DNA of 29,183 bases from an uncultured Candidatus Saccharibacteria bacterium (GTDB lineage: Bacteria; Patescibacteriota; Minisyncoccia; Phycocordibacterales; PALSA-1337): NCBI GenBank assembly GCA_964633555.1, contig CAZWGR010000001.1, positions 1 to 29,183 on the forward strand, read 5' to 3'. The translations under genes were made by a program, and so were the position numbers. Of the stretch, positions 16,179 through 29,183 are shown one piece after another (the first letter of the stretch is position 1; each line of letters starts with the position of its first letter). Below the pieces are notes generated by a model that was not told where the DNA came from, did no database searches, and saw nothing but the letters and a program-made list of their open reading frames with translations.

Positions 16179-16251
16179 GCCACCTTAGCTCAGTTGGTAG
16201 AGCAACTGTTTTGTAAACAGTAGGTCCCCGGTTCAAGCCCGGGAGGTGGCT
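16179..16251 (+). tRNA. tRNA-Thr (anticodon UGU), CCA not encoded
   Basis: Cloverleaf: acceptor GCCACCT/AGGTGGC, D arm GCTC/GAGC, anticodon arm ACTGT-TTTGTAA-ACAGT, T arm CCCGG-TTCAAGC-CCGGG, discriminator T. Confidence 0.97.
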
Positions 16252-23741: not shown

Positions 23742-25490
23742 CTAAGATCGCTGCTTAATTTCAGTCTCAAGTCGAGCAATTGCTTCTTCGGCAATAATTT
23801 GGCCGATCTGACCATGATCACGACTTTCAAGAGTAATCTTGCCAGCCTCAATATCTTTATCACCAATGATGATTGTATAAGGAGCAAAGGCATCTTTAGC
23901 TTTGCGAACCTTCTTACCAAAGCCGTCATTGGTTGTATCAATACGAGCACGAATACCTCGAGAGCGAAGATCCTTGTAGATTTTCTGTGCTGTTTCAAAA
24001 GCTGTTTCTTTTACAGGTACTACATACACCTGTTCAGGAGCAAGCCAAAGAGGGAATTTACCTGCATAGTGCTCAATAAGGAAGCCAATGAATCGTTCGT
24101 GGGTAGAAAGTGGAGCTCGATGAATACAGAGCGGAGTCTTTTTTGTTCCATCTTTATCAACATAAGTAAGGCCAAAGCGCTCTGGAACCGCAAAGTCTAC
24201 TTGGTTTGTAGCAAGGGTAAACTCACGACCAATTGCTGACCAAATCTGAACGTCAATCTTTGGTCCATAGAATGCACCCTCATCTTCAGCTTCAAAGAAG
24301 GGCACTTTAAGGTCTTGAAGACTTTTGCGAACCATGTCTTCAGTCTTAACCCAGAGAGCTTCATTGTCGATATACTTCTTGCCAAGCTTTTCTTTTGAGT
24401 GCTTTGAAAGGCGCATCTTAAAGCTGTTAATTCCAAAGATCTTGAAATAGTACAAATACATTTCAATAACTTTTTTGAATTCATCGAAGAATTGTTCTTC
24501 GGTACAGTAAATGTGAGCATCATTCATTTGCAAAGAACGTACGCGCATGAGACCAAAGAGTTCACCCGATTTCTCATGTCGATAACATGTGCCGTATTCA
24601 GCTAAGCGAAGAGGCATTTCTTTATAGCTACGAGGTCGCGCATCAAAGATTTTATGATGATGCGGACAGTTCATTGCTTTCAGATAGTATTTACCGCCTT
24701 CGTATTCCATAGGAGGGAACATAGAATCCTCATAATAAGGAAGATGGCCTGATGTTAGATAGAGCTTGTCTTTTGCAAGGTGAGGTGTGTGAACGCGCTC
24801 GTACTCATAAGCAAATTCAGTTTCTTTTGCGAGCTTTTCAAGTTCTTCAATAATTGCTCCGCCATTTGGAAGCCATAGTGGTAAACCAGCACCAACATCT
24901 TCATTGAATTCAAAGATGTCGAGTTCTTTTCCGAGTTTTCGATGATCGCGCTTCTCGGCCTCTTTTTGCTGTAATTCGTATGCTTCAAGCTCTTCTTTGC
25001 TTGAGAAAGCGAGGCCGTATATACGAGTGAGCATTTTATTTTTTTCATCTCCTCGCCAATATGCGCCTGCAATGCGGTAAAGTTTAAGACCCTTCATGTC
25101 GACATTCTTCATAGAATCGACATGTCCGCCACGGCAAAGGTCAGTAAAGTCTCCCGAAGTGTAGAGGGTGATTTTTTCTCCTTTAGCTGCTATTTCATTA
25201 ATGAGTTCTATTTTGTAAGGATTATCTTTGAAGAATTCTAGAGCTTCTTCTCTCGATACTTCTTTTGCTGTAAAACCATCCCAGCTCTTTGAAATTTCGC
25301 GCATCTTTTGTTCGATTTTTCCAAGATCCTTTTCATTGATTGGTTCTGCAAAATCAAAGTCGTAGTAAAAGCCGTTATCAATAGCAGGGCCAATAGTTAC
25401 TTTTGTAGAAGGATAGATTTTAAGAACTGCGCTTGCGAGTAAGTGAGCAAGAGAGTGTCGAATAAGAGCTAATTGTTCGTTGTTGTTCAT
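23742..25490 (-). CDS. thrS: Threonyl-tRNA synthetase (no N-terminal TGS domain; N2 editing domain retained)
   Basis: RHSLAHLL, DLCRGGH, GAYWRG, RDHRKLG, MNCPHH, YRHEKSGELFGLMRVR, AFYGPKID, IHRA. Confidence 0.98.
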   Translation of the reverse strand: MNNNEQLALIRHSLAHLLASAVLKIYPSTKVTIGPAIDNGFYYDFDFAEPINEKDLGKIEQKMREISKSWDGFTAKEVSREEALEFFKDNPYKIELINEIAAKGEKITLYTSGDFTDLCRGGHVDSMKNVDMKGLKLYRIAGAYWRGDEKNKMLTRIYGLAFSSKEELEAYELQQKEAEKRDHRKLGKELDIFEFNEDVGAGLPLWLPNGGAIIEELEKLAKETEFAYEYERVHTPHLAKDKLYLTSGHLPYYEDSMFPPMEYEGGKYYLKAMNCPHHHKIFDARPRSYKEMPLRLAEYGTCYRHEKSGELFGLMRVRSLQMNDAHIYCTEEQFFDEFKKVIEMYLYYFKIFGINSFKMRLSKHSKEKLGKKYIDNEALWVKTEDMVRKSLQDLKVPFFEAEDEGAFYGPKIDVQIWSAIGREFTLATNQVDFAVPERFGLTYVDKDGTKKTPLCIHRAPLSTHERFIGFLIEHYAGKFPLWLAPEQVYVVPVKETAFETAQKIYKDLRSRGIRARIDTTNDGFGKKVRKAKDAFAPYTIIIGDKDIEAGKITLESRDHGQIGQIIAEEAIARLETEIKQRS

Positions 25491-25502
25491 GTATTTAAGT
25501 TA

Positions 25503-25553
25503 ATAATAAAACGCCCGAGCCTATACGCGAATAATCGTGTATATGCTCGGGCG
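25503..25553 (-). terminator. T-box attenuator terminator
   Basis: 9-bp GC-rich basal stem plus 9-bp upper stem (one mismatch), followed by UUUUAUUAUU. Confidence 0.9.
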
Positions 25554-25683
25554 CAAGACTCCGGTCTTCCGCGGTTCCACCGGGCTTCGCTGCGTATATC
25601 TTATATATTACAGCAATCTTTGTAATAGATTAGGCTTTCGCTTGGTTACCCAACTGCGATTGGTAGTCGCAACAATCTCTATT
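25503..25683 (-). promoter_or_regulatory. T-box riboswitch (transcriptional) in the thrS leader
   Basis: T-box bulge UGGAACC (25579-25573) flanked by CGG/CCG and GCG/CGC helices with an AAGAC-CGGA-GUCUU cap. Its 3' strand (25553-25545) is also the 5' arm of a terminator CGCCCGAGC...GCUCGGGCG-UUUU. Candidate specifier ACC at 25664-25662. Confidence 0.9.
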
Positions 25684-25689
25684 TCTTGC

Positions 25690-25718
25690 ATTGTAGCGCA
25701 AGCCCTGTTTTGTTGCAA
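25690..25718 (-). promoter_or_regulatory. Putative sigma70 promoter of the thrS leader
   Basis: TTGCAA-N17-TACAAT on the minus strand; predicted TSS near 25683. Confidence 0.6.
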
Positions 25719-25805
25719 ATGAGACAATTTCACTGCTTGCACAGTTTGCTCACAATTTATACTCAGAAAAATCAAAAAGTTATGAATTTTTTATAGAAAA
25801 AACCC

Positions 25806-25833
25806 TTGCTTAACTCACTCAAAAAACTATACT
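25806..25833 (+). promoter_or_regulatory. Putative promoter of the repeat protein gene
   Basis: TTGCTT-N16-TATACT. Confidence 0.45.
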
Positions 25834-25859
25834 AAATATATATCACTAACTTAATACTC

Positions 25860-26510
25860 ATGTCACAAAATTCCCTTCAAAATAGTGCAAAAGAACATGT
25901 GCCACAGTACATCCATGATCTCAAAAGGGAATTAATTGACCACACTGAAAATCACGTACCGCAGTACATTCACGACCTCAAGAAGGAGCTAGTTGATCGT
26001 ATTGAAAATCACGTACCGCAGTACATCCACGACCTCAAGAAGGAGCTAGTTGATCGTATTGAAAATCATGTACCACAGTACATCCATGACCTCAAAAAGG
26101 AATTGAAAGCACATACAGACACCTCAGTAAATGCTCTTGCAGAACTTGTAGCTAAAAACATGTTCACCAAAGATGATGCAAAGAATTTGGCCGCTAAGGT
26201 AGATTTAAAGTTGCTTGCAATTAAAAAAGATCTCGAAAAGTTTGCAACAAAGAAAGATCTTGAAAGATTTGCTACCAAGAAGGATCTTGAGCGTTTTGCC
26301 ACAAAGGAGGATCTTAAGTTGTGTGCAACCAAGGAAGACCTTAAGCAATTCGCAACTAAGGAGGATCTTAAGCAATGTGCAACAAAAGATGATATTAAAA
26401 ATCTACCCACTCGAGCAGAACTTGCTGTTCAAACAGATTTTCTCGTAAAAATGTGGCAATCACACGAGGGTCGCATCGGTCACTTAGAGAGGGTTGTGGT
26501 TGAGAAATAA
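25860..26510 (+). CDS. Hypothetical repeat-rich coiled-coil protein (4 x 19-aa repeat plus 10 x 9-aa ATKxD nonads)
   Basis: 216-aa ORF; synonymous divergence among the repeats points to selection on the protein. Confidence 0.85.
   Translation: MSQNSLQNSAKEHVPQYIHDLKRELIDHTENHVPQYIHDLKKELVDRIENHVPQYIHDLKKELVDRIENHVPQYIHDLKKELKAHTDTSVNALAELVAKNMFTKDDAKNLAAKVDLKLLAIKKDLEKFATKKDLERFATKKDLERFATKEDLKLCATKEDLKQFATKEDLKQCATKDDIKNLPTRAELAVQTDFLVKMWQSHEGRIGHLERVVVEK
25890..26117 (+). repeat. Four tandem 57-nt coding repeats (ENHVPQYIHDLKKELVDRI)
   Basis: Units start at 25890, 25947, 26004 and 26061; units 2 and 3 are identical at 56/57 nt. Confidence 0.95.
26160..26429 (+). repeat. Ten tandem 27-nt coding repeats (consensus FATKEDLKx)
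   Basis: MFTKDDAKN, LAAKVDLKL, LAIKKDLEK, FATKKDLER x2, FATKEDLKL, CATKEDLKQ, FATKEDLKQ, CATKDDIKN, LPTRAELAV. Confidence 0.92.
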
Positions 26511-26542: not shown

Positions 26543-29182
26543 TTACAGTACCTTTATTTTATCAATAATAATACTCTTCTGGCCATTGCGTTCAGACATT
26601 TTACCTTTAAGTGCAATACAAACATCCGGATTAAGAATTGTACGGTAAGTGGCTAGAGTTTTAGGGAATACTACAGCTTCGAGTGATCCAGTAAAGTCGG
26701 CCACCTTAAGGAAAGCCATAAGGTCACCTTTTTTTGTTGCGATTTGCTTCGCTTCTTCTATGGTGCAAGCAAAAGTAGCTTCGGCACCATCCTTAAGTGA
26801 CTCTTTTGCTTTAGCTATATTCATACCGCTTTTTTCTATTGCTTCACGGTATTGGTCGAGGGGGTGACCAGAAACATACAAGCCAAGCAATTCTTTTTCC
26901 CAGGCTAAGCGCTGACGTGGGTGAATAGCTGGAGCTGGTTCGAGTTTAAGGGTTGGTAAAGACGAAGTGTCTGCCATGAGCCCAAAAAGAGAGTCTTGAT
27001 TTGTTGGGCGCTTCTCATGTTCTTTGTTGTAAGCCAAAAGATTTTCGATATTACCGAGGAGTGTGCCACGTTCATGACCAAAGTTATCAAGGGCACCAGC
27101 TTTAATAAGCGCTTCAAGAGACTTTTTATTAAGGTTTCTATCCTGAACTCGATCAAGGAAATTAATGAGAGAAGTAAAATGTCCGCCGCGCTTACGCTCA
27201 TCAATAATTGCTGTGGCTATATTTTGACCAAAGTTTTTAATGGTAACGAGTCCGAAGCGAATACGATCAGGCTCACCGTCTTTGCCTTTAATAACGGTGA
27301 ATTGGCTGTAACTTTCATTAATGTCTGGGGGCAGAATAGGAATCTGCATGCGCTTACATTCAGCAATGATTTCGGCAATCTTTTCTACATCACCTGAGTC
27401 GGCAGTAAGTACGGCTGACATATAGATAGCAGGGAAATTAGCTTTCATATATGCTGTTTGATAGGCAACGCGGCCATAACTAGCAGCGTGGGCTTTATTG
27501 AAACCGTAAGCGGCAAATGGTTCGATAAGCTCCCAAAGTTTTTTGGCTTTTGAGGCTGTCATGCCATTTTTTACAAGACCATCAAGGAGTTTACCTTTTT
27601 GCTCTTCCATTTCTTTGGGAATTTTCTTTCCCATAGCTTTACGAAGCTTGTCTGCTTCGAGCCAAGAATATCCAGCAAGTTCAATAGCAATCATCATAAC
27701 GTCGTCCTGGTAGGTAATAACACCAAAAGAACGTTCAATAATATTTTTGAGGCGTGGATCAATATATTCAATCTTTGAATGATCGTGTTTTCGTTCAATG
27801 TATACAGGAATCATTTCAAGAGGTCCTGGGCGGTAGAGCGCCACCATAGCGTTAATGTCGTGAATAGTTGAAGGCTTAAGCTCGACCAAGAATCGGGTCA
27901 TACCTGTACCGTTGAGCTGGAAAAGTCCCACCGTTTCACCTCGAGCAAGCATTGCAAATGTCTTAGGATCATCGAGGGGAATGTTTTCAATATCAATATC
28001 GATATCCTCAATCTTTTTAACGCGATCTACAGCGTCGGCAAGAATGGAAAGGTTTTTAATACCAAGAAAGTCGAATTTAAGGAGTCCTACGCCGTCTTCT
28101 CCTACGCCGTGCATGTCGTACTGAGTAATAATTTTACCTTCACCTTTAGGGTCGTATTGAAGAGGTACGTATTCATCAAGAGGGCGAGGGGCAATAACCA
28201 CACCGGCAGCGTGAACCGAAATGTGACGGGCACAGCCTTCAATCTTTTTAGCCATGTCAATAATTCTTTGAACATCAGCTTCTTTGGTATAGAGCTCTTT
28301 GAGTTCGGGAACTTCTTCGAGGGCGCGATCAATAGTCATTGGAAAGCCTTGTGCTCCCATAGGAATCATTTTAGATATTTTGTCACCAAGGTCATAAGGG
28401 TAGCCCATAGCGCGAGCAACGTCGCGAACAGCACCGCGGGCCATCATGGTACCGAATGTTCCAATTTGCGCTACTTTATCATGGCCATACTTTTGTCGAG
28501 CATAGCTAATAACCTCGTCGCGACGGTTATCGGCATAGTCCATGTCGATATCGGGAGCAGAAGGTCGCTGTGGGTTAAGAAAGCGTTCGAATGGCAAACG
28601 GTATTCGAGCGGGTTTACATTCGTAATATGAGTTACGTATGTGGTTAAAGAACCAGCAACCGATCCTCGAATGTTGGTAAGAATTCCATTTTCATGGGCA
28701 TAACGAAGTAGGTCAGATACTACAAGAAAGTACTGAGCATATCCTTTATCTTTAATAACTTTAAGTTCGTATTCGAGGCGGTTAACTACTTCAGGATCAT
28801 CAACTTTAAGCCCGCGCTTAGGAATTCCTTCGTAGGCAATACGACGGAGCTCATCATCATATGAAAGGCCACTCTCAACGATGTAGTTTGGAAAGGTCCA
28901 CTTTGCAAGTTCAAGTTTAAGGTTGCACATTTCGGCAATCTTAGCCGTATTATCGAGCGCTTCGGGAATGTCTTTAAAAAGTTCTTCAGCTCGTTCAGAA
29001 GAGATAAAAGAAAAATCTTCGTCTTCGCTATCGTTAAGGCGCTCAGCAGCTGCATCGCCCCCTGCTGTGTTAACGAGCATGAGCGTATCACGAGCTACGC
29101 GGTCTTCGGGGTGCAAATAGTAAACATCGTGGGCAGCTACAAGGGGCGTACCAGTCTCATTGCCGAGCTTTATGAGCTGATT
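26543..29182 (-). CDS. dnaE: DNA polymerase III alpha subunit, 5'-truncated by window edge
   Basis: Frame is open to the window end (AAHDVYYLH of the PHP domain); RGSVAGS, FERFLNP, catalytic PDIDMD, KFDFLG, YGFNKAHA, EKELLGLYVSGHP, C-terminal OB fold. Confidence 0.97.
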   Translation of the reverse strand, partial: NQLIKLGNETGTPLVAAHDVYYLHPEDRVARDTLMLVNTAGGDAAAERLNDSEDEDFSFISSERAEELFKDIPEALDNTAKIAEMCNLKLELAKWTFPNYIVESGLSYDDELRRIAYEGIPKRGLKVDDPEVVNRLEYELKVIKDKGYAQYFLVVSDLLRYAHENGILTNIRGSVAGSLTTYVTHITNVNPLEYRLPFERFLNPQRPSAPDIDMDYADNRRDEVISYARQKYGHDKVAQIGTFGTMMARGAVRDVARAMGYPYDLGDKISKMIPMGAQGFPMTIDRALEEVPELKELYTKEADVQRIIDMAKKIEGCARHISVHAAGVVIAPRPLDEYVPLQYDPKGEGKIITQYDMHGVGEDGVGLLKFDFLGIKNLSILADAVDRVKKIEDIDIDIENIPLDDPKTFAMLARGETVGLFQLNGTGMTRFLVELKPSTIHDINAMVALYRPGPLEMIPVYIERKHDHSKIEYIDPRLKNIIERSFGVITYQDDVMMIAIELAGYSWLEADKLRKAMGKKIPKEMEEQKGKLLDGLVKNGMTASKAKKLWELIEPFAAYGFNKAHAASYGRVAYQTAYMKANFPAIYMSAVLTADSGDVEKIAEIIAECKRMQIPILPPDINESYSQFTVIKGKDGEPDRIRFGLVTIKNFGQNIATAIIDERKRGGHFTSLINFLDRVQDRNLNKKSLEALIKAGALDNFGHERGTLLGNIENLLAYNKEHEKRPTNQDSLFGLMADTSSLPTLKLEPAPAIHPRQRLAWEKELLGLYVSGHPLDQYREAIEKSGMNIAKAKESLKDGAEATFACTIEEAKQIATKKGDLMAFLKVADFTGSLEAVVFPKTLATYRTILNPDVCIALKGKMSERNGQKSIIIDKIKVL

Positions 29183-29183
29183 C

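Follow-up and report, generated by a model that had tools for sequence, protein, structure and literature searches.

Within a 29,183-nucleotide stretch of the genome of an uncultured Candidatus Saccharibacteria bacterium (assembly GCA_964633555.1, contig CAZWGR010000001.1, positions 1 to 29,183; hereafter the window), we examined the leader of thrS, the gene for threonyl-tRNA synthetase (ThrRS), which is encoded on the minus strand. Sequence and comparative analysis together predict this leader to be a genuine thrS T-box with a decoding domain of a new type, in which a compact four-way junction holds a short hairpin that carries a Thr codon in its terminal loop. The element very probably functions as a transcription-attenuating T-box, setting thrS expression by the charging of tRNA-Thr through this rebuilt decoding module. 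The junction class that it represents is widespread in one large order of the candidate phyla radiation (CPR) and is missed by standard annotation. An earlier reading of the window made from the sequence alone (the sequence-only reading) had proposed a combination of a terminal-loop Thr specifier, a junction replacing Stems I and II, and a terminator; covariation, a canonical discriminator and terminator, and the position of the promoter now support this proposal. The computation shows which parts of the leader are conserved and that they covary, and it shows the alternative helices, an exclusive association with thrS, and the agreement of codon and bulge with the genome's own tRNA-Thr.

The leader was read on the minus strand, to which all of its coordinates refer, and these were checked base by base. 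A consensus scan placed a sigma-70-type promoter, TTGCAA-17-TACAAT, at 25718-25690 (-35 at 25718-25713; -10 TACAAT at 25695-25690), with a predicted transcription start at about A25683. The -10 box is separated by 9 nt from P0, the helix that closes the junction, and U25579, the first base of the T-box bulge, lies about 104 nt from the predicted start, in agreement with the roughly 100 nt given by the sequence-only reading for the same promoter. The 5' strand of P0 (AU-AGA-GA-UUG, 25682-25673) is followed by Stem I (25672-25654), a 6-bp hairpin (UUGCGA/UCGCAG) defined by sequence and covariation, with the 7-nt loop CUACCAA at 25666-25660. The specifier ACC occupies 25664-25662 of this loop and is followed directly on its 3' side by the conserved A25661, giving the arrangement of codon plus purine. 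Next come a Stem II-like hairpin, UUGG-GUAA-CCAA (25653-25642), which has no S-turn, and a Stem IIA-like hairpin, GC-GAAA-GC (25641-25634), both identified from sequence and minimum free energy (MFE) folding, and then a conserved unpaired base, C25633. The 3' strand of P0 (UAA-UCUAU, 25632-25625) closes the four-way junction. The arm with its ACC triplet and the two small hairpins are thus present where they had originally been drawn. The closing helix of the sequence-only reading survived in part: covariation supports a helix between 25682-25673 and 25632-25625, but in a different register, in which AUAGA pairs with UCUAU and UUG with UAA, leaving the two purines G25677 and A25676 unpaired. 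The decoding module as a whole (P0, Stem I and the two small hairpins) measures about 58 nt and is compactly folded as a four-way junction, and the isolated 59-nt module has this junction as its MFE structure (-12.4 kcal/mol). For P0 in the source genome the contiguous register AGAUUG:UAAUCU is possible too, and it is the one found in the MFE structure.

Downstream of the module, a purine-rich linker (25624-25615) leads to Stem III (25614-25589), formed by GCUGU (25614-25610) and GCAGC (25593-25589), both features being read directly in the sequence; in a related strain U25610 is replaced by C and the Stem III pair is retained. The T-box and antiterminator occupy 25588-25545 and consist of helix A1 (GC.CGG/CCG.GC), the 7-nt bulge UGGAACC and helix A2 (GCG.AAGAC-CGGA-GUCUU.CGC). 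The T-box sequence, GGUGGAACCGCG, lies at 25581-25570 and was aligned by the Rfam T-box model RF00230, along with its 3' partner, at high posterior probability; the segment reads GAAGCCCGG-UGGAACC-GCG, with the bulge at 25579-25573. An intrinsic terminator follows at 25554-25508, comprising a 44-nt hairpin (25554-25511; -30.7 kcal/mol) and a U run (25511-25508), and it ends 17-20 nt before the thrS ATG. Under constrained folding the antiterminator has an energy of -15.9 kcal/mol against -30.7 kcal/mol for the terminator. Because positions 25554-25545 are common to both, only one of the two structures can exist at a time, the rule for transcriptional T-boxes.

No T-box match was obtained in the window at Rfam gathering thresholds. 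In a permissive scan the leader scored 10.8 bits with RF00230, for which the gathering score is 93, and the confident alignment was limited to the antiterminator, with 29 nt standing where the model has an 87-position Stem I body. By this alignment the thrS leader has no canonical long Stem I, nor the K-turn, the internal S-turn specifier loop and the distal platform that belong to one; the same had been concluded by eye in the sequence-only reading, and the promoter leaves no room for such a stem. The S-turn Stem II, the Stem IIA/B pseudoknot and the F-box are likewise absent, there being no AGUA/GAA internal loop and no CCGUUA in the leader, and a pseudoknot cannot form because the loops of the 4-bp and 2-bp GNRA hairpins are too short. 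Stem I is not flanked at its base by GA...GA of the kind that forms a K-turn: the 5' neighbour is the UUG of P0 and the 3' neighbour is directly Stem II. A K-turn, a k-junction and a UAA/GAN motif were each considered as readings of P0 with its GA bulge; we dropped them, because neither the polarity of the strands nor the variable bases (GA, AG or AA; U or C) agree with them. No match to tRNA (RF00005) was listed when 25400-25950 was scanned permissively with cmscan (E up to 10), and the cloverleaf shape of the junction is a resemblance to tRNA only. Across the genome, the thrS leader is the sole RF00230 candidate and the only T-box found in 0.65 Mb. Rfam 15 contains no family that captures the element, and we found no description of CPR/Patescibacteria T-boxes or of a junction-type thrS T-box in the literature searched, which covered few subscription papers, such that this absence is not proof. 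These results agree with the suggestion of the sequence-only reading that the class is undescribed. The T-box database TBDB searched for the short-Stem-I class only in Actinobacteria and otherwise relied on RF00230 (PMC7778990).

Support for the junction comes from comparison with related genomes. A DNA similarity search in relatives matched mostly the T-box part, and a covariance model was needed. A dozen relatives share a layout consisting of RGARRUYG, a hairpin with the loop NNACCAN, variable hairpins, CYAAUCY and the T-box. We built a covariance model (R1) from 13 leaders of relatives, in which only P0 and Stem I were annotated as paired. R1 gave one match per genome and was found in 38 of the 151 genomes of the family; a further 15 matches came from 150 other genomes of the order, 14 of them true and from at least 13 families, the weakest match preceding dnaK, and elsewhere in the class one of about 145 genomes had a match. 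Related genomes in these and the following counts are not independent. Both P0 and Stem I covary. Of the cells in an alignment of 99 leaders, 98% are paired, and compensatory changes are numerous at each of the six pairs of Stem I. In P0, alignment pair 3-93 is AU in 76 leaders, GC in 22 and CG in one, and pair 4-92 is GC in 96 and AU in three, with no mismatch at either; the flanking pair 2-94, which is not part of the model, is CG in 67, UA in 17, AU in six and UG in six. When partners were shifted by 1-3 columns as a control, just 26-46% of cells paired. It is this comparative register, AGA:UCU, that leaves the two purines unpaired. An unfitted MAFFT alignment of 13 leaders gave the same P0 pairing as the fitted one; RNAalifold applied to the unfitted alignment recovered Stem I and did not recover the long-range P0, for which the support is the explicit pair counts.

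The remaining parts of the leader are conserved in form. Although the sequence that joins Stem I to the P0 3' strand is variable, two adjacent hairpins can be formed there in 93 of 146 unique leaders (64%), compared with 7.7% of shuffles; GNRA loops occur in only 12 of 93 and 20 of 93 of these hairpins, respectively. Junction linkers measure 0, 0 and 1 nt in most homologs, and the base before the P0 3' strand is C in 143 of 146. Taken together, the comparative data indicate that the "cloverleaf" is a real compact four-way junction. A Stem III-like hairpin is present in 126 of 146 homologs, the A1-bulge-A2 antiterminator geometry in 128, and a terminator hairpin with a U run 3' of the T-box in 139. 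The shortest linkers (21-27 nt) are A-rich, occur in at least 11 leaders and contain no Stem III. Ten leaders without Stem III (L064, L069, L074, L083, L085, L090, L099, L183, L188 and L191) measure about 150 nt including the terminator. In a sister family of the same order, one thrS leader (L229, genome and contig G227:C1) has a T-box and terminator without an R1-type junction and scores 32 bits with RF00230; it may be an intermediate form.

The specifier predicted in the Stem I loop is conserved. The loop reads NNACCAN in 144 of the 146 unique leaders and NNACGAA in two, both triplets being Thr codons, and the remaining loop bases and the stem vary. The two ACG leaders (loop CUACGAA) come from related species; each stands before thrS and is intact in every other respect, and a compensatory change in Stem I distinguishes one from the other. 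For one of these species the genome (G591) has tRNA-Thr genes with anticodons CGU, GGU and UGU, all with discriminator U73; in the other (G446), the only tRNA-Thr among the 37 tRNA genes assembled is tRNA-Thr(UGU). In the leader of G591 (L187) the bulge is UGGG and not UGGA, for which the fourth pair with U73 tRNAs would be a G.U wobble. In the source genome of the window, tRNA-Thr with anticodons GGU, CGU and UGU are all encoded, and U73, the discriminator in all three, complements the A of the UGGA bulge in the thrS leader, so that the fourth bulge base matches the tRNA. The tRNA-Thr(UGU) gene, with discriminator U, lies within the window at 16179-16251 on the plus strand; the tRNA-Thr(GGU) and tRNA-Thr(CGU) genes are adjacent on another contig (C8, 6717-6936), and only the CGU gene has an encoded CCA end. 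An alternative pairing of ACC with the GGU of the GGUGG in the T-box was rejected: it would amount to no more than 3 bp, GGUGG is a feature of all T-boxes, and the ACG variants no longer allow it.

We also scanned all species genomes of GTDB with a pattern in which the triplet was left free and AGATTG and the gap ranges were fixed, and which consequently samples part of the class. This yielded at least 119 matches, about 113 of them with the junction architecture. The true matches listed come from records whose titles give Patescibacteria, Parcubacteria, Paceibacteria, Nomurabacteria, Kaiserbacteria, Campbellbacteria or Saccharibacteria, or else give no lineage, and their triplets are ACC (111) and ACG (2). 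Wherever a downstream open reading frame (ORF) of at least 110 aa was called, its N-terminus was thrS-like by eye; a few loci had no such ORF. At one locus (L074, G267:C14) a gene for a DUF2238 membrane protein lies between the junction-type leader and thrS, and the leader appears to control a two-gene operon, DUF2238-thrS. Among the matches listed there were no non-Thr members, the codon having been left free; the remaining matches were due to chance or were a few canonical T-boxes (three in Firmicutes-type records, before tyrS, hisS and serS, by eye). In a metagenome scan for loops whose second codon base is not C, with a pattern in which AGATTG and the gap ranges were likewise fixed and which thus also covers part of the class, four matches were found, none with the junction architecture. 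As far as searched, the class is Thr-only.

Compact T-boxes of a second kind are present in other CPR lineages. RF00230 matches were obtained in 50 of 151 sampled genomes of the phylum, of which five were above threshold, and many of these sister leaders (L232-L246, from other CPR classes) measure just 117-175 nt. Because they score 30-75 bits against the threshold of 93, Rfam-based annotation misses these compact K-turn-type T-boxes too. The examples inspected show the K-turn signature together with an NN-codon-A apical loop; most have a GGAAGAA...AGUAGA Stem II, many have a CGUUA F-box, and several have terminator-like hairpins with U runs (by eye). The triplet on the 3' side of the apical loop fits the downstream gene, with GUC before valS, AUC before ileS, GAC before aspS, GGC before glyS, and ACC or ACU before thrS. 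In one case (L237, G472:C12) the compact T-box in front of a bacterial-type aspS carries AAC (Asn) in its loop in place of GAC, which would fit a non-discriminating AspRS sensed via tRNA-Asn. The sister leaders resemble the junction class in phylum, in the NN-codon-A loop on a 4-6 bp stem and in small size; in contrast to it, they keep the K-turn (GC-NNN-GA...GA-GC) and mostly the S-turn and CGUUA F-box, and have no P0. A terminal-loop specifier combined with a terminator is therefore not unique to the junction class. What is distinctive of the latter is the closing helix with its four-way junction and the loss of K-turn, S-turn and pseudoknot.

Comparison with described systems further delimits the class. 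With class I T-boxes (RF00230; e.g. Bacillus subtilis thrS, tyrS and glyQS) the junction leader shares the UGGN bulge, the A1/A2 antiterminator opposed to an intrinsic terminator, a Stem III with purines on its 5' side, a codon followed by a purine and with C in third position, and control of an aminoacyl-tRNA synthetase gene. Class I T-boxes, however, have a K-turn, an internal specifier loop and an elbow platform built of a double T-loop, none of which occurs in the junction leader, as well as an S-turn Stem II and a IIA/B pseudoknot (absent only in glycine leaders), of which it has neither; in the junction leader the codon instead lies in a terminal loop, and a closing helix forms the four-way junction. 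The ileS T-boxes of Actinobacteria (Nocardia farcinica, Mycobacterium tuberculosis) are similar in their apical-loop specifier, very short Stem I, lack of an elbow platform and canonical discriminator. These short-Stem-I ileS T-boxes have a K-turn, an S-turn Stem II clamp and a 21-nt IIA/B pseudoknot with F-box, all of which are required for binding, and they control translation (PMC7583486, PMC10651847, PMC11297988). Whereas they sequester the Shine-Dalgarno sequence, the junction leader ends in a strong intrinsic terminator with a U run; it is also without K-turn, S-turn and pseudoknot, reads Thr and not Ile, and is closed by P0.

From these features we can propose how the leader might work. 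The transcript would start about 2 nt before P0, and P0, Stem I and the two hairpins would fold into the four-way junction, with the loop CU-ACC-AA displaying the Thr codon and its 3' purine much as an anticodon loop displays its triplet. The anticodon loop of tRNA-Thr(GGU) could then kiss the Stem I loop. If the bound tRNA were uncharged, its 3' end, UCCA, would pair with the UGGA bulge, hold the antiterminator and permit readthrough into thrS; with the tRNA charged or absent, the stronger terminator would form and transcription would stop 17-20 nt before the ATG. The tRNA would thus be bound by a leader in which K-turn, S-turn, pseudoknot and elbow platform are presumably not needed, and the junction arms may merely hold the hairpin out, make new contacts or bind a protein.

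A number of observations weigh against this interpretation. The single-sequence fold of 25591-25690 (100 nt) has z = -0.72 relative to shuffles and a different MFE structure; the fold is therefore not proven by the single sequence, and proof rests on comparison. The alignments behind the large counts were either fitted to the model or picked by a pattern that fixes some columns, and covariation gives no proof of the inner part of P0 (UUG:UAA), whose pairs are invariant, mismatched (C.A in 7 of 99) or G-C. Since all members found precede thrS, a correspondence of codon and gene shows only indirectly, in the two ACG leaders and in the sister CPR T-boxes. Wastewater runs labelled RNA-Seq that contain the locus are probably DNA, with contigs of related strains, and show neither transcript ends nor a termination signal. 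In the actinobacterial class, moreover, binding is abolished or much reduced when Stem II or the pseudoknot is lost (PMC7583486, PMC10651847). An unsupported loop-loop contact of 3 bp, with neither elbow platform nor S-turn, may be too weak alone, and because it would be without the known supports, an extra contact or a protein may be needed.

Alternative explanations of the element were weighed against the T-box interpretation. Were the true start to lie further upstream, with a diverged canonical Stem I and the junction representing the Stem II region only, the 177 nt that are free between P0 and the divergent upstream gene in the source genome would offer space for it, and RF00230 indeed places its first positions at 25742, with a GCAAGC...GCUUGC pairing and a UGAA motif. 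That same low-scoring alignment, however, skips the Stem I body, and across the family -10-like hexamers are concentrated 8-10 nt upstream of P0, where they occur in 61 of 144 leaders compared with 1-3 per position in the background, implying a start 1-3 nt before P0; with -10 boxes at this distance, no canonical long Stem I fits. Within P0, the bases at the very start of the transcript are paired, with covariation, to the 3' end of the module, and at 42 of 128 loci an ORF of at least 120 aa lies within 60 nt upstream of the leader (crude ORF call). Furthermore, model matches start at P0 in all genomes, no conserved block upstream of P0 was seen by eye in homologs (the upstream sequence not being formally aligned), and the sole conserved Thr codon is that of the hairpin loop. 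An upstream start consequently seems to us scarcely credible. We give equally little credence to protein autoregulation in place of tRNA sensing, in which the hairpin would be an anticodon-arm mimic bound by ThrRS. The Escherichia coli thrS operator, which consists of such anticodon-arm mimics bound by ThrRS in autoregulation, offers a precedent, as it too regulates thrS via 7-nt-loop hairpins in the leader; the 7-nt loop on a 6-bp stem described here is anticodon-arm-like, and the element is thrS-specific. But where the E. coli operator presents anticodon-like triplets to ThrRS, what the junction leader presents is a codon, ACC or ACG, instead of one of the Thr anticodons GGU, CGU and UGU, and its loop has no counterpart of G35-U36, the anticodon bases read by ThrRS; its complete antiterminator and terminator, with a bulge matching the tRNA, would also be pointless for a protein operator. 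A further possibility is that the ACCA loop mimics the tRNA 3' end in cis, its CCA pairing with the leader's own bulge UGG and no anticodon being read. Such a pairing is available in sequence, with ACCA in 144 of 146 loops, and with all members located before thrS, gene identity alone cannot separate ACC from CCA. The CUACGAA loop of two species nonetheless destroys CCA and keeps a Thr codon in leaders that are intact and precede thrS, and one of these species (G591) encodes tRNA-Thr(CGU); other codons occupy the same place of the loop in the sister CPR T-boxes. A codon followed by A, with C in third position, and a bulge matching the discriminator base, here U73, are moreover the normal rules of T-boxes (PMC7583486). 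We consider this mimicry very improbable.

The alternatives that retain the T-box concern what supports the codon-anticodon helix. A protein partner that binds the junction or the tRNA could replace the RNA supports: all known RNA supports of this helix are absent here, those supports are essential in the actinobacterial class (PMC7583486, PMC10651847), and both unpaired purines and a C are conserved in the junction. On the other hand, no candidate protein is linked to the locus, and the junction hairpin loops vary, as their low GNRA counts illustrate. Complementary anticodon loops also bind each other well unaided, as in tRNA-tRNA anticodon complexes. Overall, dependence on a protein partner appears unlikely. 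More tentatively, and somewhat short of an even chance in our estimation, the junction might constitute an independent fourth T-box architecture, in which a bare anticodon-loop-like hairpin decodes, the junction contacts the tRNA (anticodon stem or D arm) or recruits a protein, and K-turn, platform, clamp and pseudoknot are dispensable.

The source genome comprises 652 kb in 65 contigs and is 87% complete, a size typical of CPR/Patescibacteria, and the window is its contig 1. The gene under the leader's control, thrS (23742-25490, minus strand), encodes a ThrRS of 582 aa with the Pfam domains tRNA_SAD, tRNA-synt_2b and HGTP_anticodon; by Pfam the N-terminal TGS domain is missing. In several relatives with the same leader, thrS is shorter still, beginning near ERDHKKLG and encoding no editing domain. 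The divergent upstream ORF (25860-26510, plus strand; 216 aa) contains approximately four tandem 57-nt units (about 25890-26117) encoding a 19-aa repeat, and has only sub-threshold Pfam matches (DUF1816, SERRATE_Ars2_N). Beyond it, a gene for DNA polymerase III alpha (26543-29183, minus strand) extends past the window end, with NTPase, finger, HHH and OB domains visible.

Structural work on T-boxes holds that the 3-bp codon-anticodon contact needs a prop, either the elbow platform of a long Stem I or the S-turn and pseudoknot of Stem II. The junction class is without either prop, yet has a strong terminator, and is found with covariation in well over a hundred species and some 170 leaders. This raises the question of what substitutes for the absent clamps. 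If the proposed function holds true, the module of about 58 nt would be the smallest natural tRNA-decoding module, and a target for structure determination and for the engineering of tRNA sensors. It would also mean that Rfam-based annotation overlooks T-boxes across a large part of the CPR, and would show that regulation of this kind has been retained in the most reduced bacterial genomes.

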